IMG/VR virus record: IMGVR_UViG_3300043423_000188
Location: 1-39,704 of that record
Strand: one strand, 5' to 3'
Length of the DNA: 39,704 nucleotides
Source of the DNA: a virus
Taxonomy: Duplodnaviria; Caudoviricetes
The notes below the pieces were generated by a model. That model had not been told where the DNA came from and did not search any database. It saw only the letters and a list, made by a program, of their open reading frames with translations. Of the stretch, positions 4,891 to 39,704 are shown piece by piece. Every line of letters starts with the position of its first letter. Within the stretch, counting starts at the first letter, position 1. Both the position numbers and the translations under genes were made by a program.

Positions 4891-5118
4891 ATGAACATTC
4901 CCCAACCGCACTATCCATCGCCCCTTGGGCGCATGCAAGCCCACCCCATGGATGTTGAGGCCACCAAGCGCCAAGGTTGGCGAGAGCAACACATCTTGGT
5001 CATCTCTGAGCAAGACACGCGTCTGAACTTCTTGGAGCGTCAACTCATTCGCAGCATTGGAGAGCGGCTCTACGGGCAAACCAACTGTGTCCCACCAAAG
5101 GGAGGGCAGCATGGATGA
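4891..5118 (+). CDS. Small phage hypothetical protein
   Basis: GGAGGT RBS at 4881-4886; stop overlaps the start of the next gene. Confidence 0.65.
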   Translation: MNIPQPHYPSPLGRMQAHPMDVEATKRQGWREQHILVISEQDTRLNFLERQLIRSIGERLYGQTNCVPPKGGQHG

Positions 5119-5515
5119 GCTTTGGACGATTGATGTTGTAGCCGAGCGTTTCACGGAAGCAGCACGCACTGCGAGGCGTTTGCCTCGTGTGACGGTCCAA
5201 GGCTACGTGAGCACTTGGCCAGTGGTCGCGCAAAGTGAACTCGAGGCGTATCCCGACCGCGAGAAGCTTTATCGATTGCCGCCACCAAGTCCCAAGGACG
5301 TAGACCTGATGCTTGAAGTCATGCAATGGGTGCAAGTCTTGGAGTTGGATGAGCGGCACTTGGTGTGGATGCGCGCCAAGCGATACGACTGGCGAGAGAT
5401 CGGTAAGCGCTTCGCCTGCGACCGAACCACAGCGTGGAGACGTTGGAAGCGCGACATGCAAGTCGTGACCGACAAGCTCAACGCCAAAGCAAAACCATCT
5501 GCGAACTGTTTGTGA
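5111..5515 (+). CDS. DUF6362 family protein, putative late-transcription regulator with C-terminal HTH
   Basis: WTIDVVAERFTEAARTARRLP start and HLVWMRAKRYDWREIGKRFACDRTTAWRRW HTH; occupies the Q-like position between replication and packaging genes. Confidence 0.75.
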   Translation: MDELWTIDVVAERFTEAARTARRLPRVTVQGYVSTWPVVAQSELEAYPDREKLYRLPPPSPKDVDLMLEVMQWVQVLELDERHLVWMRAKRYDWREIGKRFACDRTTAWRRWKRDMQVVTDKLNAKAKPSANCL

Positions 5516-5809
5516 GGGTTCTAGCGTGATTTGAAGTGAGTAAGCGGCGCAGTTAAAGGGGGAGAGGATATGCGCGGCTTTTGAGCCCAAATCACGCTGC
5601 AACATTTCAGCGTTTTGAAGCTACATTTCTGTCTATGGTCGCGGCAGTTGTGAGTCAAGTGAACCCACACAGTGACCGTAAGTGGCTAAGTGAGAAAGAG
5701 TAAGTGACTCACAGTGTGTGACCTCAAGAATCCATGCGCCATCTCAGGCACAAAACGCCCCATCAATGGCGTCAATCAAGCCAAGTTACCCCCAACTTCC
5801 TGAATTCAC

Positions 5810-5910
5810 GGGTCCTTCCGGGCGATAAACCTATGCGGGGGGCAAAGGTGCGAGATTTCGATACTGATAGCCCCGAAATCCGGGTGCGCAGTACGCACCG
5901 GGTACGCACC
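5810..5910 (+). other. Putative lambda-like cos packaging site (cosQ-cosN-cosB-like)
   Basis: GGGTCCT at 5810-5816 is identical to lambda cosQ; a G-rich cosN-like segment follows about 20 nt later; TGCGAGATTTCGATA matches lambda CGCGGGTTTTCGCTA at 11/15; GTACGCACC repeats follow. Confidence 0.6.
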
Positions 5911-5921
5911 CAACCTAATTC

Positions 5922-6137
5922 TCAGGCCAGCAGAACGTCTCCGCGTTTGACGTAGGTGTCGAGTTTGTCGATTGGCAAAAACAAACTGCTGCCGTTTTCT
6001 TTGCGAATTTCAAGGAACCCATCCTTGACCGGACCCACGACCTCATAGGTCCCTACGACCAGTGGTGCAAAGCCTGCATCGCTTCCATCTTTGTTTTTCT
6101 GACGGGCTAAGACCCCGTTGATGACTGTTATCCGCAC
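5922..6137 (-). CDS. Small hypothetical protein (possible SH3-like beta-barrel), moron-like
   Basis: 71-aa ORF with protein-like composition (GTYEVVGPVKDGFLEIRKENGSSLFLP), GTG start, fills the gap between cos and the methylase. Confidence 0.5.
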   Translation of the reverse strand: MRITVINGVLARQKNKDGSDAGFAPLVVGTYEVVGPVKDGFLEIRKENGSSLFLPIDKLDTYVKRGDVLLA

Positions 6138-6181
6138 TGCAGCTTCTCGTTGTTGTTTGCTTAATTTTAACCAAGGCCCCT

Positions 6182-7438
6182 ATGACACCCGAGATCCGAA
6201 TGGTCGCGGTTGATACGCTCATCCCGTACGCCCGCAATGCCCGCACGCACAACGATTCTCAAGTTGCTCAGATTGCAGCTTCCATTGCCGAATATGGCTG
6301 GACCAATCCCATCCTCACAGACGGTGAGAGGGGCGTCATTGCAGGCCATGGCCGCTTAATGGCAGCCAGAAAACTCGACCTCAAAGAGGTGCCTGTTATC
6401 GAGTTGGCGCACCTGACCCCAGAGCAAAAGAAGGCCTACATCTTGGCCGACAACCGCATTGCGGAAAACGCTGGCTGGGATCAAGAGCTTATAAAGCTTG
6501 AGTTGGCTGAGCTCCAAGCTGCTGACTACGACCTCTCGCTCATGGGGTTCACGGATGAAGAGATTGATGACTTGCTCAGTCCAGAAGATGAAGGCGGTGG
6601 TTTAACCGAGGATGATGCAATCCCAGAACCACCAGTAGATCCTGTTTCCAGACCTGGGGACTTGTGGATTCTCGGCAACCACCGCCTCCTTTGTGGTGAT
6701 TCCACGGTGCTCTTAGATGTTGAGCGCCTCATGGATGGGCAACTTGCAGACATGGCCTTCACAGACCCGCCCTACAACGTGGACTACGGCAACAGCGCCA
6801 AAGACAAGATGCGCGGCAAAGACCGTCGCATCCTGAACGATGCGTTGGGCGATGGGTTCTACAAATTCTTGTACGACGCTTGCCTGAACTTGCTGATCAT
6901 GACCAAGGGCGCTTGCTATGTGTGCATGAGCTCTTCGGAGCTGCACACCTTGCAAAAGGCTTGGCTCGATGCGGGCGGCAAGTGGTCGACTTTTGTGATT
7001 TGGGCGAAGAATTCATTCACCTTAGGGCGTGCTGACTATCAGCGTCAGTACGAGCCCATCCTCTACGGCTGGAAGCAGGGCTCCGACCATTTTTGGTGCG
7101 GCGACCGTGACCAAGCTGATGTTTGGTTTTACAACAAGCCTCGCGTCAATGATCTGCATCCCACGATGAAGCCTGTCGAGCTCGTAGAGCGTGCCGTGAA
7201 GAACTCATCCAAGAGCCGTGACATCGTGCTCGACTTGTTTGGGGGTTCTGGCACCACAGCGATTGCCTGTGAAAAAACCAACCGACACGCCCGACTCATG
7301 GAGTTGGATCCTAAGTTTGTGGATGTGATCGTGAAGCGCTGGGAAGACTTCACAGGCAAGAAGGCTGTGCTCCATCGCGCTGTTGCGGTAGAGCTTGAAA
7401 CACCTCAAGTGCTAGAAGAAAACCCTTTAGCGAATTGA
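6182..7438 (+). CDS. ParB-like domain fused to an N6-adenine/N4-cytosine DNA methyltransferase (beta class)
   Basis: N-terminal LIPYARNARTH...IAGHGRL ParB/Srx domain; catalytic DPPY, HPTMKPV, then SAM-binding DLFGGSGT. Confidence 0.92.
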   Translation: MTPEIRMVAVDTLIPYARNARTHNDSQVAQIAASIAEYGWTNPILTDGERGVIAGHGRLMAARKLDLKEVPVIELAHLTPEQKKAYILADNRIAENAGWDQELIKLELAELQAADYDLSLMGFTDEEIDDLLSPEDEGGGLTEDDAIPEPPVDPVSRPGDLWILGNHRLLCGDSTVLLDVERLMDGQLADMAFTDPPYNVDYGNSAKDKMRGKDRRILNDALGDGFYKFLYDACLNLLIMTKGACYVCMSSSELHTLQKAWLDAGGKWSTFVIWAKNSFTLGRADYQRQYEPILYGWKQGSDHFWCGDRDQADVWFYNKPRVNDLHPTMKPVELVERAVKNSSKSRDIVLDLFGGSGTTAIACEKTNRHARLMELDPKFVDVIVKRWEDFTGKKAVLHRAVAVELETPQVLEENPLAN

Positions 7439-7485
7439 CATGTACCCGTGTCAGAATCACGACCGTTCATTAAAAGGAGATTACG

Positions 7486-7767
7486 TTGAACAAGACCGAA
7501 TTGATCGAGGCATTGGCCCACGAAACTGAAATGTCAAAGGCCGCAGCTGGCCGTGCAATCGATACATTGCTTGAAATCATCACCAAGTCTGTGGCCAAGA
7601 AGCAAGACGTGCAGTTGATTGGTTTTGGTACTTTCAAAGCTACCAAGCGTGCTGCACGTACAGGTCGCAACCCACGTACGGGTGAAGCATTGAAGATCGC
7701 TGCTGCCAATGTGCCTAAGTTCACACCCGGTGCAGCTTTCAAAGCCGCATTGAACAAGAAGAAGTAA
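7486..7767 (+). CDS. hup: HU family histone-like DNA-binding protein
   Basis: [11 protein letters not shown]...VQLIGFGTF...[26 protein letters not shown]; AAGGAG RBS, TTG start. Confidence 0.95.
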
Positions 7768-7791
7768 TCACTTCGCTTGTGCATCGCACAA

Positions 7792-7824
7792 GGAGGCAAA
7801 GGTTTAGGCTTTGCCTCCATTTTT
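7792..7824 (+). terminator. Intrinsic terminator after the HU gene
   Basis: GGAGGCAAAG / CTTTGCCTCC 10-bp stem, 7-nt loop, ATTTTT tail; second hairpin CTTGTGC/GCACAAG at 7776-7792. Confidence 0.8.
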
Positions 7825-7897
7825 GACTCTGCACAAAACATAACTTAGCTTAGCTTTCACATTCATGTGCAGTCAATAAACTTTATGGAGACCCAGA

Positions 7898-8578
7898 TCA
7901 AACGGTTCTTGCTCGGTCTTGGTAAATCCAATAGCAATCACAAGACGCTTTTTCTAGTGCAGGTCTGTTTAATATTTCTATCTGGCCGCGACTTAGTTTC
8001 ACATGTCCACGAATAACAAGTTTCTTTAAAGCAAGTGCAACTGCTTCTCTACGGAAACCAAGCAAATCAGCAACTTCTTGTTGCGTGATTTGTATCACCA
8101 AAGTCAGACTGTGATCGAGTGTTATCAAAAACCACCGAATGAGTTGCTTCTCTGTTGAGTGATGTCTCCCGCATGCCATTGTTTGTGCCATCTGAGCCAT
8201 TAACTTACACGTATCCGACTGAGCTGCATGTGTATAAACAGGGCAATTCATTGCTTCATGCTTCAAGGCACTTGTCGGTATTTGATAGGCAAGTCCTGTA
8301 TTTCTAACTGTTGCACGATAAAAGCTGGGCCTATCCATAACGGCCATACCCACCATAGAAGTTTTTCCTATGACGTTTATTTCAATGCTCGTACCTTCAG
8401 TTAAATCTACCAACATCGAAACTAACGCACCTGCCGGGTAATACACATTTGTGGGCCGCTGGCCTATTCCAAACAATGTTTGCCCTTTGTGCAAAATTAC
8501 CTTTTTCAGATGCGGTTGTAATCGTAAGTACTCTGATTCAGGAATGCTAGCTAATAGTAAATTGGAAAAAAATGTCAA
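7898..8578 (-). CDS. Crp/Fnr family transcriptional regulator
   Basis: cNMP-binding-like N-terminal domain (NLLLASI..EYLRLQPHL..VILHKGQTL...VYYP) and C-terminal HTH ITQQEVADLLGFRREAVALAL; visibly lower GC than the flanks. Confidence 0.88.
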   Translation of the reverse strand: MTFFSNLLLASIPESEYLRLQPHLKKVILHKGQTLFGIGQRPTNVYYPAGALVSMLVDLTEGTSIEINVIGKTSMVGMAVMDRPSFYRATVRNTGLAYQIPTSALKHEAMNCPVYTHAAQSDTCKLMAQMAQTMACGRHHSTEKQLIRWFLITLDHSLTLVIQITQQEVADLLGFRREAVALALKKLVIRGHVKLSRGQIEILNRPALEKASCDCYWIYQDRARTV

Positions 8579-8593
8579 AATGTGCTTTTATTG

Positions 8594-8884
8594 TTAAAAA
8601 TGCATATTTGTCGAGTTTGTTGATTTAGGAGTCGCTTTTCTATGCGAATTCACACACATCGGCAAGGGTAAGGTTGCCCTGTTGGATTTCTGATTAGTGG
8701 GAATGTCAGTCACAACCAAGTGGCGATAGTTACCAGACATCATTTCGCTACTGATGGGTATAAAGTCGATTCTTGGGTTTCGGGCGAGTGATTGACCAAT
8801 TCCAAGGATGCACCATGCATTGCCATCGGGGCCGTTTAGGTCGATGCTCTGTTTACCAGATGGTTTGTGCTGGAGAAATGCCAT
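8594..8884 (-). pseudogene. Probably 3'-truncated small phage protein
   Basis: IDLNGPDGNAWCILG...EMMSGNYRHL resembles a small conserved phage protein but runs into unrelated AT-rich sequence at ~8715. Confidence 0.4.
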
Positions 8885-8888
8885 ACGC

Positions 8889-9248
8889 TCATCCCAATCG
8901 CGCCACATAACGCGCATAGTCCCCACCCTCGGGATTGACGTAGAGGTAGGGTCGTCCTGGTGCTTTGATCTCAACGCACAAAAATCCGCCACCTGTGCCG
9001 CCGCCTTTGCCTGCAAGCCAATCGCGTGACCTGAGGAGCGTTCGGCCAAAGCTGTCGAACTCATCAGCAGTCATCTCGCAGGTTGCAGTCACGAGCACCT
9101 TGTAGCTGCCGTAACCGCCCACTTCCTCGAGGCTGCAGAGCTTGCGCGCAAAGGGCAGCTCGATGCTGAGTTCCTCAACGTCAATTTTCTTACCCCCGAA
9201 GTCTATGGTGCAGGCTGTGCGCTCGATCGTGATGGTCATCGTGCTCAT
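8889..9248 (-). CDS. Conserved prophage hypothetical protein
   Basis: VEIKAPGRPYLYVNPEGGDYARYVA C-terminal motif; ATGA overlap with the upstream gene. Confidence 0.7.
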   Translation of the reverse strand: MSTMTITIERTACTIDFGGKKIDVEELSIELPFARKLCSLEEVGGYGSYKVLVTATCEMTADEFDSFGRTLLRSRDWLAGKGGGTGGGFLCVEIKAPGRPYLYVNPEGGDYARYVARLG

Positions 9249-9742
9249 GCTGCGACTCCTTCGCTGCTGATGCGATAAGTGCGCTCTTGGCCCGCTGCTT
9301 TGTCTGAGGTGATGGTGAGGCCCAGTTTCTTTTTCAGGGCTCCGGCCATTGCGCCACGCACGGTGTGTGCTTGCCAGCCGGTGGCTTCGATCAGTTGGTT
9401 CAAGGTTGCGCCATCGGGGCGCTTGAGCAACTCAATCATTTGAGCTTGCTTACTGTTTTCTCGTGTACGCGGTGTTTTGGGATTGGCTGGCGCAGCGTTG
9501 GTCTCCAACGCTGGCGCGTTGGTTGATCCCTTGCGTGGCACACCGATCGCGTCGTAGCCCTCGGCTGCAATGAACCAGTTGCTGGCGCTCTTGGTGATGA
9601 GTGTTCGGTTGAACAAACCGTCGAGCACTTTTTGGCGAGCTCCCCCTTTGATGTTTTCCGGGAACCATTCAATCTTGCCCGATGTGTGTTGGTATGCATG
9701 GGCAAGGATGGCTTGTTGGGTGGCTGTGAGTGTGGTGGTCAT
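9245..9742 (-). CDS. DUF3489 domain protein (winged-HTH-like)
   Basis: RENSKQAQMIELLKRPDGATLNQLIEATGWQAHTVRGAMAGALKKKLGL; AGGAG RBS. Confidence 0.85.
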   Translation of the reverse strand: MTTTLTATQQAILAHAYQHTSGKIEWFPENIKGGARQKVLDGLFNRTLITKSASNWFIAAEGYDAIGVPRKGSTNAPALETNAAPANPKTPRTRENSKQAQMIELLKRPDGATLNQLIEATGWQAHTVRGAMAGALKKKLGLTITSDKAAGQERTYRISSEGVAA

Positions 9743-9769
9743 GTGTTTCTCCTGTTGAGGTGGTTGGGG

Positions 9770-9973
9770 TTACTTCTTGACGTTGTGAATCTGGCTGGCG
9801 CGATCAAAGTCAACCCAGTGGCCTTCTCTGTCCAAACCGCGTGAGGCCAGCTCTTCCCGAGCTAAGCGGTTCAAGTCCAGCTCACCCTTGGCCGCTGCCG
9901 ACAAGGCTTTGATGCCAGCGATCTGGATAAAGCCCACCTCATCGAGGGTGAGGCCGTTAGTTGTGTAAGTCAT
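9770..9973 (-). CDS. Small prophage hypothetical protein (start uncertain, 9973 or 10000)
   Basis: KALSAAAKGELDLNRLAREELASRGLDREGHWV motif; co-oriented with the leftward cluster. Confidence 0.65.
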   Translation of the reverse strand: MTYTTNGLTLDEVGFIQIAGIKALSAAAKGELDLNRLAREELASRGLDREGHWVDFDRASQIHNVKK

Positions 9974-10043
9974 CGTTTCAATCGCCTTGGGGTTGTTCAT
10001 GTCTTTCATTCCGTTTTTCAAATAATTACTTGTGAGGTGCGTG

Positions 10044-10073
10044 ATGAACGCTTCTATTTCTGAATGAGTCAAG
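10044..10073 (-). promoter_or_regulatory. Repeated promoter-like motif, copy 1
   Basis: Minus strand CTTGA-N14-GAAGCGTTCAT upstream of the 9973 gene. Confidence 0.5.
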
Positions 10074-10110
10074 CGGCTTGTGAATCTCTTGCTTCAATTT
10101 TTGGTGCTCT

Positions 10111-10326
10111 TTAAGCCTTCTTTGTCTTCGCCTGCAAACCAGCCTGAACTCCTGCCTCAAATGCAGCCTTCAGCGCCGATTCAATCGCCCAAACCGAAAC
10201 GTCGTGAAAGTCCAAGCAGTCGCGGCTCTGTGTCTGCAGGGTCTCGACAAAAAAGTGCTTCAAAGCGATCTCCTCCAAAAGCGAAGAGGGCGCGGTGATC
10301 GCGTTGGCAGTGGTGTGGTGGTTCAT
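10111..10326 (-). CDS. DUF6900-like protein
   Basis: LLEEIALKHFFVETLQTQSRDCLDFHDVSVWAIESALKAAFEAG; GGAG RBS before MNHH. Confidence 0.75.
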   Translation of the reverse strand: MNHHTTANAITAPSSLLEEIALKHFFVETLQTQSRDCLDFHDVSVWAIESALKAAFEAGVQAGLQAKTKKA

Positions 10327-24091: not shown

Positions 24092-26722
24092 ATGAACCTG
24101 CAAGAACAGTTAGAAGCAACAGTCAACAAGGCTGAGGTCGATGTGTCCTTGTTGCACCAAGTGGTGCACGGAGACAGCGAGACGGATGTGGTCACCGAGG
24201 GTGGTTCTGTCAAAACGGTGGCCAAGGCTATCCATCAGGTTGAACTTGATTTGGCGGCGTCCCGCACAGAGCTCACAGCTCAGGTGGGGGAGGCCACAAG
24301 GCAAGCTGGCATTTCCACGAGCAGTGCCAATCTGTCCACGTCCAAAGCAGCAGACGCAGCGGCAACGCTGGCAGAGGTCATGGCTAGAGCAGACGCGGCA
24401 ACCAGTGCCGTGGTGATTCCTACCAAGACATGGGTGGGAAACGGCACGCAGACAGACTTTGCACTTGACTATGCGGTGGGTCATCCCGGTGCATTGCAAG
24501 TCACGGTGGCCAGTGTGTTGCAAACACCCCTAGATGCCTATTCGCTGTTTGATTCCAGAACGCTGAGGTTTGTGACGGCCCCCTTGAATGGGGTGAGCAT
24601 CACCGCGCGAATGCTGGATAAAGAGAGCCAGACCGGTGCAGCCGCTGCGATGGATTGGGCGACCAAGACCACGGGGCCTGTGCAAGGAACTGAGTATTCG
24701 GCGAAATACCAAGCGCAGGCAGCGGCCAGCAGTGCAAGCGCATCAGGTGCTTCAGCTTTGGCGGCTGCAACGAGTGCTTCAGCCTCGGCATCTTCTGCGT
24801 CCACATCGAGTACCAAAGCCAGTGACGCGGCTATGTCTGCGGGCGATGCAGCAGCTTCTGCTGCAACTGCAACGACACAAGCCAGCGCGGCTTCTGGTTC
24901 TGCCAGTAGTGCGGCTGCATCAGCCACTGCTGCTGCCAACTCAGCGATAACTGCAGCTTCTAAAGCCACCGATGCATCCAGCAGTGCATCGAGTGCTTCG
25001 AGTTCAGCAAGTGCAGCCGCAACGAGCGCCAATAACGCGCAAGACTGGGCGACCAAAACAAGTGCGCCTGTCAATGGCGCTGATTATTCGGCCAAGTACT
25101 ACGCCCAGTCCATCACGGCATCTGCGGCAACTGCCAGTCAAAAAGCGAGTGATGCGGCGGCGAGTGCCACGGCTGCGGCAGGCTCTGCCAGCACTTCTAC
25201 GACCAAAGCCTCGGAGAGTGCTGCGTCCGCCAGTAGCGCTGCATCATCAGCGACAACGGCAACGACGCAGGCCACTGCAGCTACGACATCTGCCACCAAC
25301 GCAGGTGCATCTTCGACGGCGGCATCTGGCTTTGCAAACACGGCCAGCACCAAAGCAAGTGAGGCGGCTGCAAGTGCCACGGCTGCCGCAACCTCTGCGA
25401 CCAATGCAGGTGCTAGTGCAACGAGTGCTGCCGCATCTGCGAGTGCCGCAGCAGGTTCTGCGACGACGGCAACGACCAAGGCCTCAGAGGCTATGGCCAG
25501 TGCAAATGCTTCGGCATCTTCTGCGAGTGCGGCTTCAATCAGTGCAACAAGTGCAGCGAGTTCGTTGACTTCAGCTCAAACGCAAGCTACCAAAGCAGCG
25601 GATTGGGCGGAGAAGACTGCGGCGACGGTTGACGGGACGGGTTACTCAGCCAAGTACTGGGCAGCGCAAGCGGCTGGTTCAGCCGCAGCAGTGACGACCA
25701 ACACCATCATTCCTGCGGAGACTTTCACGGGCAATGGTGTGGCGACGGACTTCACAATCAGTCGTGGGGTTTCTTATCCCGGTGCCTTGCTGGTCACGGT
25801 CGCAGGGGTGCAGCAAGCGCCAGTGGATGCGTACACCACGCCCACTATGACCACGCTTCGATTCAGCTCAGCGCCGGACAACGGTGTTCTCATCAGTGTT
25901 CGGTATTTGGATAAGGAAGCGCAGTCGGGTGCCGCTGCCGCGCAAGAGTGGGCAACGAAGACGACTGGCATGGTCTCGGGCTCCACGGAGTATTCCGCGA
26001 AGTACCACGCAGGTGCAGCAGCTGCAAGTAGTTCTGTGGCAACCCAAAAGGCATCGGATGCCTCTGGGTCTTCGACTTCTGCTGCAGCCTCAGCCACGAC
26101 GGCCACGACCAAGGCATCTGACGCTTCTGCTTCTGCCAGTGCGGCTGCGAGTTCGGCAGCAACAGCCACTGCCAAAGCAGGTGAAGCATCGGCGTCGGCA
26201 ACGAATGCGGCCTCGTCTGCATATGCAGCGGCGACTTCCGCAACCGCATCAGCTGCCTCTGCCGCAACGACGACTACCAAAGCTTCTGATGCTGCGACGT
26301 CCGCTTCTACGGCCACAGCCAAGGCAGCCGAGGCCAGTGGTTCTGCGACGGGTGCTGCAAGTTCGGCGAGTGCAGCGAGTACGTCTGCCTCTCAGGCATC
26401 GACCTCCGCCACCAATGCAGCCACAAGTGCAACAGCGTCAGCCACCTCTGCAACCAATGCCCAGACCTATGCCACGCAGGCACAAGCTGCGGCAGCCAGT
26501 GCGCAAGGTTCAAGCGTTGCACCGCAGGTGTTCACGGGTAACGGCAGTGCCACTGACTTTGCCCTCACCACGGCAGCGGCCAGTGTGACCAAGCTCATGG
26601 TGACGGTGGCCAACGTCATTCAGGACTCGTTGGACGCTTATGTGTTGGTCAATAGCGGTGCAACTTTGAGATTCACCTCTGCGCCCTTAAACGGGGTGCG
26701 CATCGTTGTTCGGTATCTGTAG
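24092..26722 (+). CDS. Long Ala/Ser/Thr-rich side tail fibre (Stf-like) with three repeated beta-domains
   Basis: Extended ASSAASSA..TKASEA repeats; three GNG..TDF...LRF..AP.NGV.I..R.L domains; four (D/E)WA.KT...YSAKY motifs. Confidence 0.85.
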   Translation: MNLQEQLEATVNKAEVDVSLLHQVVHGDSETDVVTEGGSVKTVAKAIHQVELDLAASRTELTAQVGEATRQAGISTSSANLSTSKAADAAATLAEVMARADAATSAVVIPTKTWVGNGTQTDFALDYAVGHPGALQVTVASVLQTPLDAYSLFDSRTLRFVTAPLNGVSITARMLDKESQTGAAAAMDWATKTTGPVQGTEYSAKYQAQAAASSASASGASALAAATSASASASSASTSSTKASDAAMSAGDAAASAATATTQASAASGSASSAAASATAAANSAITAASKATDASSSASSASSSASAAATSANNAQDWATKTSAPVNGADYSAKYYAQSITASAATASQKASDAAASATAAAGSASTSTTKASESAASASSAASSATTATTQATAATTSATNAGASSTAASGFANTASTKASEAAASATAAATSATNAGASATSAAASASAAAGSATTATTKASEAMASANASASSASAASISATSAASSLTSAQTQATKAADWAEKTAATVDGTGYSAKYWAAQAAGSAAAVTTNTIIPAETFTGNGVATDFTISRGVSYPGALLVTVAGVQQAPVDAYTTPTMTTLRFSSAPDNGVLISVRYLDKEAQSGAAAAQEWATKTTGMVSGSTEYSAKYHAGAAAASSSVATQKASDASGSSTSAAASATTATTKASDASASASAAASSAATATAKAGEASASATNAASSAYAAATSATASAASAATTTTKASDAATSASTATAKAAEASGSATGAASSASAASTSASQASTSATNAATSATASATSATNAQTYATQAQAAAASAQGSSVAPQVFTGNGSATDFALTTAAASVTKLMVTVANVIQDSLDAYVLVNSGATLRFTSAPLNGVRIVVRYL

Positions 26723-26748
26723 AGCAATTCATCTGAAAGGAGGCCCTT

Positions 26749-27348
26749 GTGCCTATTACCCAAATCCCACCCGAGGGCCTGAAAGATTCGGGCGTATCTG
26801 CAGGAACCTATGGGTCTGCTTCGCAAATCCCTGTAGTGACGGTCAACAGCAAAGGCCAAGTCACCTCGGCGGGTACAGCAGCGCTGGACTTGTCGACTAA
26901 GGTCAATAAGTCGGGCGACACGATGACGGGAACGTTGTCTGTTCCGCGTCTGCAAGTCACCTCCACTGCTAACTACATCGACATGGTCGATACGGACTGG
27001 GGTACACGTTCGTTTTATCACAACCAGGGGCTCATGGGATTTTTGAAATCCGATGGCAACTGGGACATGTACATGAACAACGGTGGTCAGATGTGGGCGG
27101 CCAACTACGGCTGGTTGCATGACTATTTTTTCAGCAACGTGAGTAATTGCATTCGAATTAATGGCAACCCATCATCAGCTTGGTCAGGTGCACCTAACTG
27201 CCAGGTGACAGACAACTGCTACAACTGCGGAGAATTTGCACCTAATCAAAGTAACACGTTACCGACGCTGTTTGATAACGGTGGAAACATACGACTTGGT
27301 GCTTATGGCACTCGATACAACTGCAATTGCGATTGCAACTGTTGCTGA
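26749..27348 (+). CDS. Small tail-fibre/receptor-binding protein with Asx-Cys-rich C-terminus (candidate modification substrate)
   Basis: Fibre motifs SGVSAGTY..VTVNSKGQVT and KSGDTMTG; 9 Cys, all after residue 133; ends YNCNCDCNCC; AGGAGG RBS, GTG start. Confidence 0.75.
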   Translation: MPITQIPPEGLKDSGVSAGTYGSASQIPVVTVNSKGQVTSAGTAALDLSTKVNKSGDTMTGTLSVPRLQVTSTANYIDMVDTDWGTRSFYHNQGLMGFLKSDGNWDMYMNNGGQMWAANYGWLHDYFFSNVSNCIRINGNPSSAWSGAPNCQVTDNCYNCGEFAPNQSNTLPTLFDNGGNIRLGAYGTRYNCNCDCNCC

Positions 27349-27359
27349 GGAATGAAAAT

Positions 27360-28202
27360 ATGAAACTTCACCTAGCTACAAAAAATACACCGTTTGCGCT
27401 TGATGTTGTTCTGACCGGCACGATTCTGAAGTTTCAGATCAGATCAGTTGTGCAGAGAAACTTTGTGGGAAATCCTCAAAAAGAGGATGTCAACGGATGC
27501 AAGTTCTTTGATGAATCGTTGATTACCGAGTGGCGGGGAGATTGGGGCGTTTTTGATGAAGGCGCCTACCAGCGATCTCTAGACTTGGAAACACTCAAAT
27601 CACATGCTGAGTTTGGCGACCATGCTTCGTTCATGTTGTATGCGCCGAAGGGCTGGGCGTCAGAGGGCGCGCGTGAAAGCCTCTTTGATCACACGCCCAA
27701 TCTGTATGTCGCCACTTTGGCGAGCAAGATGGATGCGCAGGCGTATCACGCGACCGTGGTTCAGGCGCATCCCATCGGTCACATCTTGGTGCCATTCAAA
27801 ACATCTGAACTCGCAGATTGGTTGCTTGGTTTCAATGTGTTCGATCCTGTCCTTGTTAAAACACAAGGCGACATCGATGCAGAGCCTTGTGTCACTCTGG
27901 CTCTGGCGCGTATGGAGTCATTGCCTGTGGTTCGATTCATGCCCAGCACTGAATCGTACGACGGACTGATTGTTAGTTTCAGACTTGAAGAGCCTGATGG
28001 CAAGCCAATCATCCATCACGATGCAGACGTCTATTTGGATTCAACCGCTGGGTTCTTACGTGACCGTCGTGTGATGACAGTTGATGGCGCAGGAAGCACT
28101 GTCTTTAAAACAGACGGCTTGAGCTCAGGCACCCAAGTCAAGATCAAAGTCGGCTTCAAGTACTTCAGCGGTACGGATGACTTGGTGGTGAGCGTCCCAT
28201 GA
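27360..28202 (+). CDS. Hypothetical protein with probable C-terminal Ig-like domain
   Basis: GAGGAA RBS; the last ~85 aa are alternating beta-strands (VSFRLEEPDGKPI..DVYL..TVDGAGSTVF..QVKIKVGF). Confidence 0.65.
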   Translation: MKLHLATKNTPFALDVVLTGTILKFQIRSVVQRNFVGNPQKEDVNGCKFFDESLITEWRGDWGVFDEGAYQRSLDLETLKSHAEFGDHASFMLYAPKGWASEGARESLFDHTPNLYVATLASKMDAQAYHATVVQAHPIGHILVPFKTSELADWLLGFNVFDPVLVKTQGDIDAEPCVTLALARMESLPVVRFMPSTESYDGLIVSFRLEEPDGKPIIHHDADVYLDSTAGFLRDRRVMTVDGAGSTVFKTDGLSSGTQVKIKVGFKYFSGTDDLVVSVP

Positions 28203-28810
28203 TCCTTGACCTCTTCCCTCTTAAAACAGGGATCTGGTCACTTGGAATGGATGCGACGTTTGATCAGGATCTCTATGAAGAGCTATTGCAATTGAACGCC
28301 CGCATGCAAACAGGCGATCAGATCTGGGAGCGCAAAGGTCACAACATCTTTGACGGATATTCGCCGCGCTGCCAGACATTGCAGACGGCAGTCCTGTCCA
28401 AAGTGCAGGAGTTGCTTGGCCCAAGCGGACGAGTGGTTCATGTGCAAGGGCGAGAGGTCGTTCGTTCTAGTGGCGTCGAAATCATGCCGCACAACGACGA
28501 AGACGAATGCGATGTGCAGGCCATCTACTTTCCATTCGGCCCCGAGCTTGACTCTGCACTTGAGCTGATGCCGCAGATCAATCAATTTGTTCCCAATGGC
28601 TTTGCCATCTGCAACCCCGCCTGGCGCTCGTCCGGGTTTGCTGGGTTACTCATGCCTTGGGAAGCCCCATCCAAGTTCTGGATCAAACCTCATCGCGATC
28701 TGTTGATAGCGTTTGACGCCAGAGCAATTCATTTTCAGAAACCCTACTTTGGGGAGCAACCGTTTATGAACATTCTTTTCAATATAAAAGTGGAGCGCAT
28801 CCATGGCTGA
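28199..28810 (+). CDS. Putative 2OG-Fe(II) oxygenase / double-stranded beta-helix protein
   Basis: LFP N-terminal motif, H98-x-D100 plus distal H178 facial triad, KP..DLLIAF...H...P.....NILFN pattern. Confidence 0.6.
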   Translation: MILDLFPLKTGIWSLGMDATFDQDLYEELLQLNARMQTGDQIWERKGHNIFDGYSPRCQTLQTAVLSKVQELLGPSGRVVHVQGREVVRSSGVEIMPHNDEDECDVQAIYFPFGPELDSALELMPQINQFVPNGFAICNPAWRSSGFAGLLMPWEAPSKFWIKPHRDLLIAFDARAIHFQKPYFGEQPFMNILFNIKVERIHG

Positions 28811-30152
28811 GTTCCGTATCTATGTGATCAAGCCAGACGGCGCAGAAGACTCGCTGGTCTACAACAACCAGACTTCGAGTCTTGTTTGGAGCAATGGTCA
28901 GTCGGTCGTTCCAGTCAAAGCACGCGCTTGGCGTGATGCGACGGTTGTTGCCAAAGATCAACCCGGTCGCAAGGGCAATGTGCGAGTGCTCAAGATCAGC
29001 CTTGGCCTGCTTTGCAATTACGCCTGCACTTACTGTTCACAACGGTTTGTACCCCATGCCGACCAGACCAATCCAGAAGATGTCGAGACATTTCTTCACT
29101 CTCTGGTCGATGCGCTGATTGAACCTCCAGAGCGTATTGAGTTCTGGGGCGGTGAGCCGCTGGTTTACTGGAAGACCTTGAAGCCACTGGCTGAGCGGTT
29201 GAAGGCGTTGTACCCCAAGGCTCAGTTCAGCATGATTACCAATGGCAGTCTGCTAGATGCGGACAAGAACGCATGGATTGACCGTTTTGGATTCTCCGTA
29301 GGGTTGTCGCACGATGGTCCTGGTTATCACGCACGTGGTGCTGATCCCTTGGATGACCCACAAAAACGAGCTGCCATTTTTGATCTGTACGCACGCTTGA
29401 AGCCTGAGGGTCGAATCAGCATCAACGTCATGATTCACTCAAGCAATCCAAGTCGCGCTCATGTGCAGGCATGGCTGCGCGAACGCTTTGGTGATGACGT
29501 CGTCATTGGTGAGGGTGCATTCATTGACCCTTACGACGAGGGTGGATTGGCTTCCACGTTTCAGACTTCAGACGAGCGCGTCACTTTCAGTGCCTATGCG
29601 TTCAAGGAGTTGCGTGCAGGTGAAGCTACCAGTTTTGATATCGGTCGCAAGAAGATCATGGACTTTGTGGAGTCTGTGGCACAAGGTCGCCCTGCCAGTG
29701 CGTTGGGCCAAAAGTGCGGCATGGACCGTACCGACAACCTCGCTGTTGATCTGAACGGCAATGTGTTGACTTGCCAGAACGTGAGTGCAGCCGCTGTCGC
29801 TCCAAACGGCGAGTCACACACGATTGGACACATCTCTCAGCTTCAAGCAGTCAAGATGCGCAGCGCCACGCATTGGAGCAAGCGAGATGGTTGTTCAAAC
29901 TGTCCTGTGCTTCAGTTGTGCAAAGGCTCATGCATGTTCTTGGACGGCCCCTTGTGGACGGCAGGGTGCGATGCCTCCTATGCCGACAACGTGCCGTTCT
30001 TAGCCGCTGGCATTGAGTTCCTCACTGGCTGTTTTCCGTTCTACATCGAGGGCGATTTCCCACAGGAGCGGCGAGATATCTTTGGATTAGCCAGTGAGCA
30101 CTCCGAAGCGAAAGAGCGTCGTGTCATCCCCATCAAGGTAGAGCATGCCTGA
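28803..30152 (+). CDS. Radical SAM enzyme with C-terminal SPASM domain (peptide/protein maturase type)
   Basis: C71xxxC75xxC78 (CNYACTYC), FWGGEP, ITNG, LSHDG; SPASM pattern Cx13Gx4C...Cx2Cx5Cx3Cx11C. Confidence 0.92.
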   Translation: MAEFRIYVIKPDGAEDSLVYNNQTSSLVWSNGQSVVPVKARAWRDATVVAKDQPGRKGNVRVLKISLGLLCNYACTYCSQRFVPHADQTNPEDVETFLHSLVDALIEPPERIEFWGGEPLVYWKTLKPLAERLKALYPKAQFSMITNGSLLDADKNAWIDRFGFSVGLSHDGPGYHARGADPLDDPQKRAAIFDLYARLKPEGRISINVMIHSSNPSRAHVQAWLRERFGDDVVIGEGAFIDPYDEGGLASTFQTSDERVTFSAYAFKELRAGEATSFDIGRKKIMDFVESVAQGRPASALGQKCGMDRTDNLAVDLNGNVLTCQNVSAAAVAPNGESHTIGHISQLQAVKMRSATHWSKRDGCSNCPVLQLCKGSCMFLDGPLWTAGCDASYADNVPFLAAGIEFLTGCFPFYIEGDFPQERRDIFGLASEHSEAKERRVIPIKVEHA

Positions 30153-30687
30153 TGTGACATTGAGTGATGCGTTGAAAGAGGCGTACGCGAGTGCGCCTTC
30201 AGATGTGGTGATCCTGCATACCTTGGAGCTGCGTCACCCTGACTTTAAAAGCGATTCGGGTGTGACAACAGCAATCCGTGTGGTGCGAGATCAACAAGAC
30301 CTCTTTGCGCGCCTCGAAGCTTCGGCACCGTTGAACTCAAGTGAAACGGTGAGGTTCGTGGCCATGGGATTCGATTTGGATTTGCCACCTGTGGATATTG
30401 CTCCCGTTCCTGAGGTCGTGCTGACCTTGGACAACGTTTCACGCGAAATCGTCAAACACCTTGATGCTGCGTCGGAGTCAGAAGCTTCCATCGAAGTGAC
30501 CTATCGCCCGTACTTGTCAAACGATGTAGAGGGGCCGCAGATGGACCCTCCCATCACGCTGGTACTGACCGAGGTGGAGGCGGATGTGATGCGTGTGACC
30601 GCAAGAGCGCGAATGGTGGATATTGGGAACAAAGCGTTTCCGGGGCGGCTGTACACCTCGACAGAGTTTCCGGGACTTGCCCGGTGA
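30145..30687 (+). CDS. DUF1833 family minor tail protein (gpL-like)
   Basis: ALKEAYASAP..VILHTLELRHP...LTLDNVSREI..VTYRPYLS; precedes the NlpC and J genes. Confidence 0.8.
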   Translation: MPDVTLSDALKEAYASAPSDVVILHTLELRHPDFKSDSGVTTAIRVVRDQQDLFARLEASAPLNSSETVRFVAMGFDLDLPPVDIAPVPEVVLTLDNVSREIVKHLDAASESEASIEVTYRPYLSNDVEGPQMDPPITLVLTEVEADVMRVTARARMVDIGNKAFPGRLYTSTEFPGLAR

Positions 30688-34806: not shown

Positions 34807-35709
34807 TCACTTGGCCCAGCCGATGTCCCGCAAGATTAAACCTAAAGCCTCAATGGCAAGCTGGGCGTCTTCCTCGATAGGGGGGCGGGCTTCCTTAGCG
34901 TGTTGCTCATTACCTTTTCCTCGGGCGTGAAGTCGAGCAGCGACCTGTGCGAGATTACCTATTACGAACATCTGATAGGGTGGGGCAAGGACAACTTTTG
35001 CGACTTCGCCGATGTCTTTATCCAGAATAGATTTCGGATGTCCTTGTTGAACGAGCCATCGACCAAGAATAACTGTCATTGCATTTTTGCAGTGATCAAC
35101 TACGGAGATAGCAGTTTCCCGGAAGGCTGAGTCCAAAGCTCGGTTGAATGCTTGGGTGACAGGCTGTTGGTGCTCCATCGAAACCTTGTTCATGTCGATT
35201 GCAGGCAAAATTCCAAATGCGCTAAGTGCTTTAAGTGTCACCATTACGCAGCCGCTAATCAAAAGTTCGGTTTGGACGACTCGCCATGAGGATGCGGCCT
35301 GAGTAGTTCCCAATGCTAAGGTTGAGCCCTGTCCTTGATTAGGTTCCTGGAGTAAAGGCGTGCAAGCCATGTATGTATAAAGTGTTTTTCGCGTTAGACC
35401 TCCCTGGCCCGCAGATTTTCCGAAAGGGTCCTCATATGGATGTGGTGTCACGGAAGTTGTTGTCGGTTGAATTCCTCCTGGTTGGAAGTAAAGGCGACCT
35501 CGTCGAGTGCGAGTCACTGCATCAAAAGTGTCTTCCCGGAAGATCCAGCTCAAAGACGATTGGCTGAAGTTAAGGGGCAGAGCGAGCCAGTCCTCTGGGC
35601 TTCTGATTAATGTGGCTAAGGCAATATGAGGCGTAGGAATAGTCGGGGAGCTAGGGTGCCCCCAACCCTCATAGACCAAACCTGAGTTGTTATCGATTCC
35701 AAGATACAT
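34807..35709 (-). CDS. Hypothetical moron protein, possibly anti-phage (helical HEPN/Abi_C-like C-terminus)
   Basis: 300-aa ORF with AGGAG RBS, convergent with the lysis genes, lower GC; FREDTFDAVTRTRRGRLY motif. Confidence 0.6.
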   Translation of the reverse strand: MYLGIDNNSGLVYEGWGHPSSPTIPTPHIALATLIRSPEDWLALPLNFSQSSLSWIFREDTFDAVTRTRRGRLYFQPGGIQPTTTSVTPHPYEDPFGKSAGQGGLTRKTLYTYMACTPLLQEPNQGQGSTLALGTTQAASSWRVVQTELLISGCVMVTLKALSAFGILPAIDMNKVSMEHQQPVTQAFNRALDSAFRETAISVVDHCKNAMTVILGRWLVQQGHPKSILDKDIGEVAKVVLAPPYQMFVIGNLAQVAARLHARGKGNEQHAKEARPPIEEDAQLAIEALGLILRDIGWAK

Positions 35710-35825: not shown

Positions 35826-36770
35826 TCAAGCCATCGGAATCGGAGGGGGAGCAACGAACTCTTCTTTTTGCTCCATTTCATTGTCATAAGACTCGAGTGC
35901 ATCTCCGCCAAATGTCTTTCGCATTTGGTTTGCCGCTTCCTTACTATTTCCGCTGCTCCATGTTGATTGAATCGAGTCTGGGTCGATTACAGACCGAATT
36001 TCAGCTCGCTCGTAATCTAGAAGTGGGCGGCCGGATAGAAATAGCCTTCCGTCTTCAAATCGTGGCCAAAAGAAGCCTATATCGGTTGAATTTAAGTATT
36101 GGTAAATTTTTACTGCTTGAGGCGCACCACCGATGCTATCGTTAGCAGAAGAATTTCTGAGAAGATCCCGAATGCATTCGAAAGGCTCCAAGTTGAACCT
36201 TGCTGTTGGGGGGTGACGCATGTCAAGACCATAGCGCGACTGTGCTAAAGCTTTTACATTCTTATGTAACGTTGCAGTCCACTCTGGGTCACCTGCAATT
36301 TCGATCTTTCCAAGTCCACCCAATGCGTTACTTCCCGTTCGCTCATCTGCGATAAAACAGGACATTGTTTGATTGAATTCAATTCGCCACAGTCGAAATG
36401 ATTTTTTCCACCAGTCGTAGCCTCCGAACAAGAAGGTGACATCTGGAATATTTGCTCCATGTGCGAAATTGTGTACCTCACTCTGCATCTGATTTAACAG
36501 ATTAAGCAAGTGAGTCTTGAATTTTGAAAGAGTGAGCGAGCGAGTCTGCGACGGCGCATGAAGATCCGCTGCTTTGATTGCGGCGATGATCATGGGGTAT
36601 GCCCAATCTGTTCTGCCTGCAAAGCAAATGGCCGCATCTGTGCGATTGAAACGGAAAGTTTTTTGGCAATGATCGAATCTTGTGCCATTGCTTAATCGGC
36701 TATCTGAGCAAAAAAAGAGCTCTTCGGCCCCATTTTCTAGGGTTCGAATCCAAGCTGCAGCTATTGTCAT
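35826..36770 (-). CDS. Putative Ntn-hydrolase (proteasome beta/HslV-like fold) protein
   Basis: Starts M-T-I; SDSRLS motif, downstream QK, ICFAG, FLFGGYD and late SIGG motifs echo proteasome-subunit motifs. Confidence 0.6.
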   Translation of the reverse strand: MTIAAAWIRTLENGAEELFFCSDSRLSNGTRFDHCQKTFRFNRTDAAICFAGRTDWAYPMIIAAIKAADLHAPSQTRSLTLSKFKTHLLNLLNQMQSEVHNFAHGANIPDVTFLFGGYDWWKKSFRLWRIEFNQTMSCFIADERTGSNALGGLGKIEIAGDPEWTATLHKNVKALAQSRYGLDMRHPPTARFNLEPFECIRDLLRNSSANDSIGGAPQAVKIYQYLNSTDIGFFWPRFEDGRLFLSGRPLLDYERAEIRSVIDPDSIQSTWSSGNSKEAANQMRKTFGGDALESYDNEMEQKEEFVAPPPIPMA

Positions 36771-36877: not shown

Positions 36878-37361
36878 GCAACGATCCTTTCAGTTTGCGA
36901 AAGTGAACAAACAAAGCATATTTGTCAATGACCGTCGATTGTCAGGGGCTGTGTGATGTGGTTTGTCAAATGGTCTTTCACTTTCTCGACGGTCACAAGC
37001 TAGGCCTTGCATTGCTCCTCAAGGTAGTCGTGCTGTTCGTAGAACTTCTCCTTTAGGCTGGCTGCGGATATTCGCGGCAGACGGTCCCAGCGACCGCTGC
37101 GATCGATACCCGACGCTCGCGGCTGTAAACCGTAGGCTTCACGAAATACCGCCGCGTTGCTCGATTCGTTGCGGAGACGCATCAAGCGAAGCGTTAACCC
37201 CAAATTCTTCCGTAACTGCGACAGAGTCTGTTCGATTGCGGTCTAATCAACGCACAGGAAGGGGCTCGACATAGTACGCGCGGATGCAACCGGGTTGTAT
37301 TGAAGCCTCTTGTGTCAATGCCGTTGCAAACGCGGCAACTCAATACAGGAGGCACAGCATC

Positions 37362-39704
37362 GTGACCACACCAGCAGCACCAGCAATTTCGTCCGGTAGC
37401 ATTACGCTGCGGTATGTCGAGTTGTGCAAGTTCCGTCGCCTGGGCAAGGTCCAATTGGACTTGGACCCGCTGACGACGATTCTCGTGGGCGCCAACAACA
37501 GCGGCAAGACCGCCATCCTCACCGCGCTTCGGCACTTCCTAGCTGAATCCTCGCCCTTTGGCGCGTTCGACATCAGCCTCTCGGAGTGGCCCGTGCTTCG
37601 CGCGCTGGGCGTCAAATGGGAATCGTTGACGGAAGATCCGGCGACCGCCGCACCGAAGGAGGGCGACAACTGGGAGGACGAGCTAGCGACGCTGTTGGCG
37701 GCGATGCCCACGCTGGATTTGTGGTTCGACGCTGAGGCCGGGATGTTCCACTACGTTCAGCCCTTCTTGTCCAAGTTGGTTTGGAAAGGTGGCGCTGTTG
37801 GCGTCCGGCTGCGCCTGGAGCCGGCCAGCGATGTCGCGTCGCTCAAAGAGCTGGCCTGGGCCTACAACTTGGCGCGCCAACCTGTGAAGGGCATTAGCAG
37901 CGATTCGCTGGCCTGGCCGATTGACCTGCTTGACTACTGGCTACGCGAGCCCAGGAAGCTGGGACAGGTCAAGCCGTACAGCCTTGATGCGGCCAACAAT
38001 CCTATCCAGGGGATCAAGACCTACAAGACCCAGGTCTTGGCGGCGGGCGCGCAGCCAGCCGACCGCAAGCACCTCGCTAAGTTGATCCGCGTCGACTTCG
38101 TGGCCGCCCAGCGTGGCCTCGGCTCGGAAGAGGCCGACTCCAAGTCTACGTCGTCATCACATCCCGTCGGCCTGTTTTCGAACCAGCTCCTGAAGTTTGC
38201 GCGCCAGCACCTCAACGTCGCCGTCACTGGGCACGGGCAACGCGCCGACCTCATCCAGGCGGTCGCCAATGCGCAGAAGGACCTTGACCTGAAAATACAC
38301 GAAGCCTTGGCGTCCTCGGTGGCCGAGGTGAAGATGCTCGGCTACCCCGGCCTTCATGATCCTCAGGAAATCAGGTTCAGGACGCGTATCCACACCGCCG
38401 ACCTGCTTGACCACAGTACTGCCGTCCAGTACAGCATGAAAGGCGGGACCGGCGAAGACATGCTGCCGGAGTTCTCGATCGGCTTGGGTTACCAAAACCT
38501 GCAGTCGCTGAGCTACCAGCTCGTGTCGTTCAAGACCGCGCGCATGAACCCTGAGAAAGGCTCGCCGCCACCGGTCCACCTCGTCATGATCGAGGAGCCC
38601 GAGGCCCACTTGCACGTCCAGGTGCAGCGCATCTTTCCGGACAAGGCGCACAAGCTCATCAGCCCGACCGATAGTGATGCCAGCGCGCTGCAAAGCCAGT
38701 TGCTGATCAGCACCCATTCCAGTCATCTCGCGCACGCCGAGGACTTCGATCGGCTGCGGTACGTGCGGCGGATTCCAGCCTCGACGTCCTATCCAACGCC
38801 GAGCACCGAAGTTGTCGACCTGGGGGAAGTGTTCGGCGACGACGAGGAGACACGGCAATTCGCGGAACGCTACTTTCGCGTGCAACACACCGATCTTCTG
38901 TTCGCCAACGCCGCACTGTTCGTGGAAGGAGTCGCAGAGCGGATGCTCGTGCCGCTCTTCATGGAGCTGAAGTACGAGAAATTGAACAGCCGCTACGTCT
39001 CTTTCCTGGACATCGGTGGCAGCCACGCACATCGGCTGAGGCCCTTGGTTGAGAAGCTCCGGATTCCTACCGTCGTCATCACCGACCTCGATCCCACCGA
39101 GAAGAAGGCCGGCCCCAAAGGCAAGATGCGCTGGATGGCCACGGCGAACACAGGCCAGGCCGGCCTAAGGTGTGGCAATGCCACGCTACGCGAATGGCAT
39201 CCCAAACTGCAAAACGTGGACGACTTCAAGGCGCCAACTTCCGCCCAACTCATCTGGACCGGTGCACCGGACTGCAAGGTGCGGTTCGCATGGCAGCTGC
39301 CGGTCTCTGAGGCGGGCAATCAATGGCCGACGACCTTCGAGGACTCGCTGATCCTTACCAACATCGACTGGTTCAAGGGGCTGAATAAGTTGGCTGAAGA
39401 GACTGAGGCTGCCAAGGCCGGCGGCCAACAAAAGGCCGAGGACGAAGACAAGGAAAAGAAGGTCAGGCCACCTACCGGCGCACTTGCCGAAGCGGCCGAG
39501 GTCGTGGCAGGTGCTGCCACCCACGTGGATCTACTGCAGGCCCTACATGGGCTGATGCGGGATTCGTTCAGCAAAGGCGATTTTGCGGCCAGCATCTTTG
39601 AGCGCGTCGCGGCCGGTGAGGATGTCACGTGCCCCAAGTACATCGCCGACGCCCTCAGCTGGCTACAGGATGAACTCGATCCTGCCGGAAGTATGACGCT
39701 ATGA
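37362..39704 (+). CDS. OLD-family ATP-dependent nuclease (ABC ATPase + TOPRIM), GajA-like
   Basis: Walker A GANNSGKT, signature-like IGLGYQN, Walker B IEEPEAHLH, STHSSH, TOPRIM FVEGVAE and ITDLD; AGGAGG RBS before GTG at 37362. Confidence 0.9.
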   Translation: MTTPAAPAISSGSITLRYVELCKFRRLGKVQLDLDPLTTILVGANNSGKTAILTALRHFLAESSPFGAFDISLSEWPVLRALGVKWESLTEDPATAAPKEGDNWEDELATLLAAMPTLDLWFDAEAGMFHYVQPFLSKLVWKGGAVGVRLRLEPASDVASLKELAWAYNLARQPVKGISSDSLAWPIDLLDYWLREPRKLGQVKPYSLDAANNPIQGIKTYKTQVLAAGAQPADRKHLAKLIRVDFVAAQRGLGSEEADSKSTSSSHPVGLFSNQLLKFARQHLNVAVTGHGQRADLIQAVANAQKDLDLKIHEALASSVAEVKMLGYPGLHDPQEIRFRTRIHTADLLDHSTAVQYSMKGGTGEDMLPEFSIGLGYQNLQSLSYQLVSFKTARMNPEKGSPPPVHLVMIEEPEAHLHVQVQRIFPDKAHKLISPTDSDASALQSQLLISTHSSHLAHAEDFDRLRYVRRIPASTSYPTPSTEVVDLGEVFGDDEETRQFAERYFRVQHTDLLFANAALFVEGVAERMLVPLFMELKYEKLNSRYVSFLDIGGSHAHRLRPLVEKLRIPTVVITDLDPTEKKAGPKGKMRWMATANTGQAGLRCGNATLREWHPKLQNVDDFKAPTSAQLIWTGAPDCKVRFAWQLPVSEAGNQWPTTFEDSLILTNIDWFKGLNKLAEETEAAKAGGQQKAEDEDKEKKVRPPTGALAEAAEVVAGAATHVDLLQALHGLMRDSFSKGDFAASIFERVAAGEDVTCPKYIADALSWLQDELDPAGSMTL

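Follow-up and report, generated by a model that had tools for sequence, protein, structure and literature searches.

Results

Gene content of a tail-fibre slot in a provirus

We analyzed a stretch of phage DNA of 39,704 nucleotides (the window), a provirus record that is 72% complete and whose genes include those for a lambda-type terminase, portal, capsid, tail tube, tape measure, and TipJ. A slot between the gene for a 162-aa tail protein and that for a DUF1833 protein contains, in order, genes for an 876-aa fibre-like protein, a 199-aa fibre, a 280-aa protein, a 203-aa protein, and a 449-aa radical SAM/SPASM enzyme (Table 1). The 876-aa protein has three copies of a domain of ~70 aa, from near a GNG..TDF motif, with long low-complexity linkers between them. 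In bacterial genomes, the closest relatives of the 199-aa fibre include prophages of Limnohabitans and other Burkholderiales.

Other genes in the window lie outside the slot. A Crp/Fnr-type regulator with cNMP-binding and HTH domains (7898-8578, minus strand) is encoded inside the prophage, ahead of the packaging genes. Two genes on the minus strand, opposite the lysis genes (34807-35709 and 35826-36770), had no Pfam or PADLOC match; the product of the latter has a Thr after the Met at its start and a 'DSR' motif, features that we presume recall proteasome-type Ntn hydrolases. At the right end of the record (37284-39704, plus strand) is a gene for a Gabija GajA-like OLD nuclease (PADLOC E 2e-243); GajB would fall outside the window.

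Table 1. Features of the fibre slot and the evidence for each
Feature	Position	Strand	Evidence
Proximal fibre-like protein, 876 aa, Ala/Ser/Thr-rich	24092..26722	+	Weak PHROG tail-fibre matches; slot map
Distal tail-fibre-like protein, 199 aa	26749..27348	+	ORF with ribosome-binding site; weak PHROG tail-fibre matches
Constant fibre body (residues 46-127), predicted trimer	26884..27129	+	Identity among relatives; inter-chain contacts; related to Itty13 gp11 and Dolphis gp33
Exchangeable tip (residues 129-199), nine Cys, eight after Asn/Asp	27133..27345	+	Cys counts; shuffles; homologue comparison
Terminal Asx-Cys ladder, N191-C199	27319..27345	+	CxCxC conservation; inter-chain contacts in trimer model
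280-aa partner with C-terminal Big/intimin-type Ig domain (residues 189-280)	27360..28202	+	Model; structure matches
2OG-Fe(II) oxygenase-like protein, 203 aa, H98-x-D100...H178	28199..28810	+	Atlas feature matches
Radical SAM/SPASM enzyme, 449 aa	28803..30152	+	PF04055; phrog_1802; invariant Cys; fold matches
DUF1833 minor tail protein, right border of swappable slot	30145..30687	+	Domain match; slot map

A predicted trimeric fibre with an Asx-Cys tip

The 199-aa open reading frame starts with GTG and has a strong ribosome-binding site (AGGAGG at 26738-26743). Matches of its product to PHROG tail-fibre families were weak (E 4e-5 to 7e-3). Searches of Pfam and NCBIfam gave no family, the fibre profile, searched against PDB sequences, matched only T4 gp34 and another fibre, with E of 0.1-0.25, and Atlas matches to named families were all below 0.9. 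Two cultured Pseudomonas phages, Itty13 (gp11) and Dolphis (gp33), encode a related fibre body (E 1e-12 and 1e-10, respectively), and the Dolphis protein is annotated as a tail fibre. From prediction and homology, the 199-aa protein appears to be a tail fibre with a homotrimeric plan.

A sequence-only reading of this DNA had suggested a trimer model as a check, and we modeled three copies of residues 45-199. The score was 0.91, compared to 0.00 for the best control. In the calibration, which does not extend to three copies, 20 of 30 solved homo-pairs and one of 23 single chains attained the score mark. At least 73% of the contacts agreed between runs, and the pLDDT was at least 68. There were confident inter-chain contacts in the body, at L174, and at the Cys residues of the terminal ladder (C192, C194, C196, and C198/C199), and none at N191, N193, D195, N197, or the Cys residues in the loops. 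The fibre body is thus predicted by the model to trimerise.

All of the Cys residues are in the C-terminal part of the protein. The nine Cys (134, 151, 157, 160, 192, 194, 196, 198, and 199) are preceded by Asn in seven cases, Asp in one, and Cys in one (C199), and residues 1-133 have none; this count confirms the sequence-only reading that eight of nine Cys follow Asn or Asp. Eight or more Asx-Cys dipeptides appeared in one of 200,000 shuffles of residues 129-199, and in 15 other proteins encoded in the window 6 of 61 Cys follow Asn or Asp. The shuffles and this background rule out compositional chance as the source of the pattern. The chance of all nine Cys falling within the last 66 residues was 3e-5, for a region picked after the data were seen. 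The DNA of the tip had also been described as AT-rich. This holds at four-fold degenerate sites, where G+C was 42/68 in the body and 8/29 in the tip (p=0.0035), but not overall, where 53% in the body versus 46% in the tip was not a significant difference (Fisher p=0.10).

The Asx-Cys dipeptide is conserved in tips that are exchanged between fibres

We compared the tips of the best 120 of 304 fibre homologues. CxCxC was present inside the last 16 residues in 119 of these 120, and Asn precedes 189 of the 189 internal Cys in their 51 distinct tips, which are related to one another. Asn makes up 15% of the tip regions compared. We then used one representative of each of 21 tip clusters and scored the residues around 57 isolated tip Cys. 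Asx was found at i-1 in 55 of the 57, compared to three at i-3, three at i+1, nine at i+4, and 16 at i-4. Based on the counts at i-1 and i-3, we conclude that the conserved unit is the Asx-Cys dipeptide and not NxxC, a spacing that the NCNC ladder contains trivially. A CX3D-type motif, which would place Asx at i+4, was rejected as well.

The alignment of homologues, another check suggested from the sequence, showed that the Asx-Cys rule is kept while the loops vary. N133-C134, N191, and N193-C194 were invariant in 50 aligned homologues, and Ala, Tyr, and Gly are also accepted before Cys at the distal rungs. C151, C157, and C160 are shifted in other tip types, and internal Cys are absent from some tips. 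The 'fixed Cys anchors' that had been proposed therefore exist at the invariant positions and not at the three loop Cys.

In six close relatives, the bodies were 92-96% identical and the tips 79, 69, 52, 38, 38, and 39% identical. Additionally, one tip was 99% unchanged on two fibres, of 197 and 306 aa. These near-constant bodies with divergent tips, together with the tip shared by two fibres, indicate that tips are exchanged at the YGWLHDYFF junction. The body and tip identities bear out the exchangeable tip module that had been proposed.

The radical SAM/SPASM enzyme falls outside the curated maturase families

The 449-aa protein scored above cut-off for PF04055 (33.8 bits, cut-off 29.5) and for SPASM TIGR04085 (35.2 bits, cut-off 27), and matched phrog_1802 with E 5e-59. 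Ten Cys were invariant in 52 aligned relatives: the three of the radical SAM CX3CX2C motif (C71, C75, and C78) and seven auxiliary Cys (C305, C324, C364, C367, C373, C377, and C389). An eighth invariant auxiliary Cys was not found in this alignment. The auxiliary spacing, 19/40/3/6/4/12, compares with 19/38/3/6/4/19 in CrpC. The sequence makes auxiliary cluster I (AuxI) a candidate for a three-Cys cluster with an open site, a non-Cys fourth ligand being possible.

Judged by its sequence, the enzyme belongs to no curated maturase family. The best NCBIfam match was PapB (65 bits, cut-off 340), and the scores for the SCIFF maturase (33, cut-off 425) and QhpD (46, cut-off 453) families were also far under cut-off. 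Assignment as an anaerobic sulfatase maturase (anSME) was rejected, with 49 bits against a cut-off of 349 and seven invariant auxiliary Cys versus the eight-Cys SPASM. In a Foldseek search with the enzyme model, anSME was the top match (E 2e-13), and CteB (E 1e-11), ChlB, and TigE were also found, all about equal. Matches to EpeE structures were weaker (TMq 0.33, versus 0.52-0.55), and there were weak viperin-type matches (E 1e-12). Based on these modeled structures, the fold alone does not decide the chemistry. At its N terminus, the model has three strands (residues 3-29) and lacks helices ahead of the core; an RRE (RiPP recognition element) consists of three strands and three helices.

The ladder and the enzyme occur together

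We fetched 80 of 582 confirmed viral-contig matches to the enzyme; 56 had at least 4 kb of upstream sequence and 24 were too short. A ladder ORF was present in 53 of the 56. Starting from the ladder, the enzyme was present in 58 of 59 viral loci and in 26 of 26 loci from bacterial genomes that had at least 3.5 kb downstream; six genome loci without a fibre match and two truncated viral loci were dropped from these counts, and the counted loci are redundant.

These counts bear on the earlier idea that Asn-Cys is an enzyme recognition or crosslink motif in what was called a precursor core peptide. A dedicated radical SAM/SPASM enzyme does accompany the tip, and the wording 'precursor core peptide' does not stand: the tip forms the last part of a fibre for whose body a trimer is predicted, and neither a protease gene nor an exporter or transporter gene was seen between the fibre gene and DUF1833. 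We rejected a RiPP precursor, a short leader-core peptide that is released by a protease and exported, on the same grounds and because the protein has 199 aa and a fibre body.

There were exceptions to the linkage. One ladder locus, L132, had no enzyme in 3.9 kb of a fragment that is 13% complete. The enzyme was found without a scored ladder in four loci, of which L042 looks IS-broken, L049 looks degenerate, and both L080 and L234 look rearranged. RSP15 has an enzyme of 51% identity, and its gp48 ends with only two Cys. The RP12 enzyme is 27% identical, and there was no ladder in the six neighbours examined. We also noted what lies at two of these loci. In L132, two membrane desaturase-like genes (5453-7701; His boxes identified by eye) follow the ladder cassette at the usual radical SAM position, and a Pfam scan of one of them gave no match. 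In L252 (Ralstonia phage RP12), three radical SAM genes (5102-10212) follow virion structural genes, with no Asn-Cys ladder in the neighbours examined.

The ladder and the enzyme were jointly present or jointly absent when DUF1833 was used as an anchor outside the pair. The whole slot was visible in 35 of 73 DUF1833 loci, after dropping L175 (rearranged) and 37 loci with no match to the upstream 162-aa gene. Both ladder and enzyme were present in 14 of the 35, neither in 21, and one alone in none. A presence/absence tree needs about three changes, two of them forced by well-supported branches, indicating that few independent events are behind this contrast. In five DUF1833 records without the cassette, four of them incomplete, the enzyme was not found elsewhere, in a search that had no positive control. 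Phages that are 94-98% identical in DUF1833 have had the cassette replaced as a block. The enzymes of the replaced cassettes are 39, 54, 86, and 94% identical to that of the window, and each has its own ladder protein beside it.

The pair is kept across differing fibre bodies, two partner types, and Hint-capped fibres, and its carriers include one phage of siphovirus type and one from the Ackermannviridae. The ladder of gp28 in the cultured Achromobacter phage JWF comes before a Hint domain. The related fibres of Itty13 (gp11) and Dolphis (gp33) end in a Peptidase_S74 chaperone in place of the Asx-Cys tip, and directly after the S74 fibre gene is a Gly-rich gene that, by resemblance, we take to be gp38-like. 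No PF04055 gene was found in the complete genomes of Itty13 and Dolphis; JWF has one. Related phages that have no cassette hold other genes in the slot (L180, 7886-9541; L183, 8013-9569); the L180 protein is an RCC1-repeat protein.

The 280-aa partner and the oxygenase

The 280-aa partner was modeled with a pLDDT of 96. Its Ig domain aligned with GH2 Ig/intimin domains over ~87 residues (VIA Z ~10-11, rmsd 2.2-2.8). There were 143 relatives. Pfam and NCBIfam searches with the partner and with the 203-aa protein gave no match, nor did a Foldseek search with the partner at E <=0.001. The partner is a candidate tip adhesin or chaperone. Its identity tracks that of the tip (rho 0.52), and that of the enzyme does not (rho 0.10; n=108, not independent), and so sequence co-evolution of enzyme and tip was not found. 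This difference fits a docking protein that is specific to the tip and an enzyme that reads the motif, and is not proof of contact. In some cassettes, a second partner type replaces the Ig type (L015, 5360-6130; L250, 8282-9004, which is JWF gp29). The L015 and JWF proteins are 25% identical to each other and do not match the Ig-partner profile.

The 203-aa protein had Atlas feature matches of 0.95 and 0.94 to PF13759 clusters, and genes at this position in relatives match PF13759 or PF13640. The relatives examined have from zero to three oxygenase-like genes here, and the oxygenase is an accessory gene that varies in number. In L156 (8887-10866), a single protein combines the radical SAM enzyme with a 2OG-Fe(II) oxygenase domain, a fusion suggesting that the two share one substrate.

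Discussion

The tips of tail fibres determine host range and are regarded as no more than folded proteins. On the evidence above, we lean towards the view that the radical SAM/SPASM enzyme makes Cys-Asn thioethers on the tip of the intact fibre, and not on a released peptide. This reading is favoured because Asn and Asp are known acceptors, because of the seven-Cys pattern of the enzyme, and because the dipeptide rule also holds in loops that have no predicted axial metal site. The enzyme, encoded three genes downstream, would join the sulfur of each Cys to the Asn or Asp just before it. The free iron of AuxI would bind the Cys thiolate, a SAM radical would abstract a hydrogen from the neighbouring Asx, and a small ring would close. 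The ring would have six members if closed at C-alpha, the enteropeptin case, or seven if closed at C-beta; an inter-chain link within the trimer is a less likely geometry. The rigidified tip would then take the place that is filled by the self-cleaving S74 chaperone in related fibres, the Ig-domain protein would dock on the modified tip as an adhesin or a chaperone, and the oxygenases could add optional hydroxylations. Against thioethers, the enzyme is far under every family cut-off and its top fold match is anSME, which is not a thioether former. The enzyme model without RRE helices, the enzyme identities that do not track the tip, the small number of changes on the tree, the exceptions to the linkage, and the other residues accepted at the distal rungs also weigh against this reading.

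Known systems share parts of this arrangement. In the accessible part of PMC13692751, CrpC of Methanococcus voltae makes thioethers in the Cys-rich protein CrpA, and the proposal there is that its three-Cys AuxI binds the Cys of the substrate. CrpC/CrpA resembles the phage system in having a seven-Cys SPASM enzyme whose Cys are spaced almost identically, with a neighbouring gene for a Cys-rich protein and not a peptide. It differs in being archaeal and non-viral, in its predicted RRE, and in residue order (PMC13692751): the Cys there comes ahead of the acceptor, and in the phage tip Asx comes ahead of Cys. The word 'phage' was absent in a term search of the text and three supplementary files of that paper. 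Cys-to-Asn beta-thioethers are made by the radical SAM enzyme NxxcB, according to the portion of PMC9389541 available, and Cys-to-Asp beta-thioethers by QhpD in QhpC, as described in the same portion of PMC13692751. These share the acceptor type, Asn or Asp, with the Asx-Cys tip; however, NxxcA is a short peptide under quorum regulation (PMC9389541) and QhpC is one subunit of an enzyme (PMC13692751), whereas the phage substrate would be a predicted trimeric fibre, and the NxxC spacing of NxxcA is seen outside the ladder here at only 3/57 Cys.

In the enteropeptin thiomorpholine (PMC12395415) and the TqqB morpholine (PMC9389541), as presented in the accessible text, a radical SAM enzyme links a heteroatom to the adjacent residue in a six-membered backbone ring, and the enteropeptin order X-Cys matches the Asn-Cys of the tip. 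Those products have one ring, and the acceptor, ornithine or Gln, is part of a small secreted peptide (PMC12395415; PMC9389541), whereas the tip has up to eight potential sites on a structural protein. By analogy, the system may work like CrpC/QhpD protein maturation, yet outside the curated maturase families and outside RiPP precursors.

The plan of the fibre also has a precedent. S16/T2-type gp37 and gp38 follow, in the available portions of the sources, a plan in which the distal fibre is a trimer, its C-terminal module can be replaced, and the adjoining gene encodes a separate tip protein; gp37 has an intramolecular chaperone and gp38 is the adhesin (10.64898/2026.05.12.724579; 10.1101/2024.10.28.620165). 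Itty13 and Dolphis show this gp37/gp38 plan on a body related to that of the window. Unlike the S16/T2-type as presented there, the Asx-Cys tip replaces the S74 domain, the next gene encodes an Ig fold and not a Gly-rich protein, and enzymes follow. Literature searches, with subscription papers and bioRxiv supplements outside their scope, yielded no description of an Asx-Cys fibre/radical SAM system. The accessible part of PMC12801897 is unrelated to such a system, and those of two fibre-structure surveys and the Pam3 paper do not mention cysteine.

Other readings of the tip have to be weighed. The ladder Cys of the three chains might coordinate metal ions, or an Fe-S core, along the three-fold axis, with the enzyme only editing Asn or helping to build the site. 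Iron bound by pairs of His residues in the T4 gp37 needle is a precedent for metal in a fibre. Axial metal binding stays a rival on account of the trimer model, in which the ladder Cys, and not the Asn and Asp between them, are in confident inter-chain contact, and the nearly universal CxCxC register (119 of the best 120 of 304 homologues) is consistent with it. We nevertheless consider it unlikely: it leaves unexplained the Asx before isolated loop Cys (55/57), which have no confident inter-chain contact, and simple metal binding does not need a SPASM enzyme. A model of the unmodified protein may also misplace donor and acceptor, as noted for CrpA in the accessible part of PMC13692751. Somewhat less probable still is that the enzyme acts on the tip by other chemistry: it might oxidise Cys to formylglycine as anSME does, epimerise every second residue, or close a different ring. 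The top Foldseek match and the lack of fit to any characterised family would allow this, and strict alternation would suit an epimerase. The canonical SPASM motif, however, has eight auxiliary Cys and not the seven invariant ones found here, and the matches to EpeE were the weaker ones.

The tip Cys might instead form ordinary disulfides, with the enzyme and oxygenases targeting something else (the partner, the host surface, or DNA) and merely sharing a mobile cassette with the fibre. The independence of enzyme and tip identities points in this direction, as do the two terminal Cys of RSP15 gp48 and the weak viperin-type matches. We regard this as improbable, since disulfides do not need a preceding Asn, the pair persists across the fibre bodies, partner types, Hint-capped fibres, and phage types described above, and ladder and enzyme are jointly absent where the tip type changes.

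Returning to thioether formation on the intact fibre, we can put forward a broader proposal, tentatively and as something that may well not hold in full: that phages have a third route to a finished fibre tip. Every Asn-Cys of the trimeric tip would be converted to a backbone thioether ring by a radical SAM enzyme of the phage, instead of the tip being finished by a self-cleaving or folding chaperone. This would give a RiPP-like, poly-heterocyclic surface for receptor binding or adhesin docking, diversified by swappable oxygenases, with host range set by enzymes as well as by fibre sequence.

If true, this would be an undescribed chemical finishing step for the host-binding part of a virus, and could be the reason if such fibres fail when produced on their own. 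Radical SAM chemistry would gain a new substrate class and motif, and a role would be suggested for some of the 2OG-oxygenase genes that are beside phage tail genes. A widespread enzyme cassette (582 viral-contig matches to the enzyme) that chemically matures fibre tips would be a new layer of phage-host recognition.
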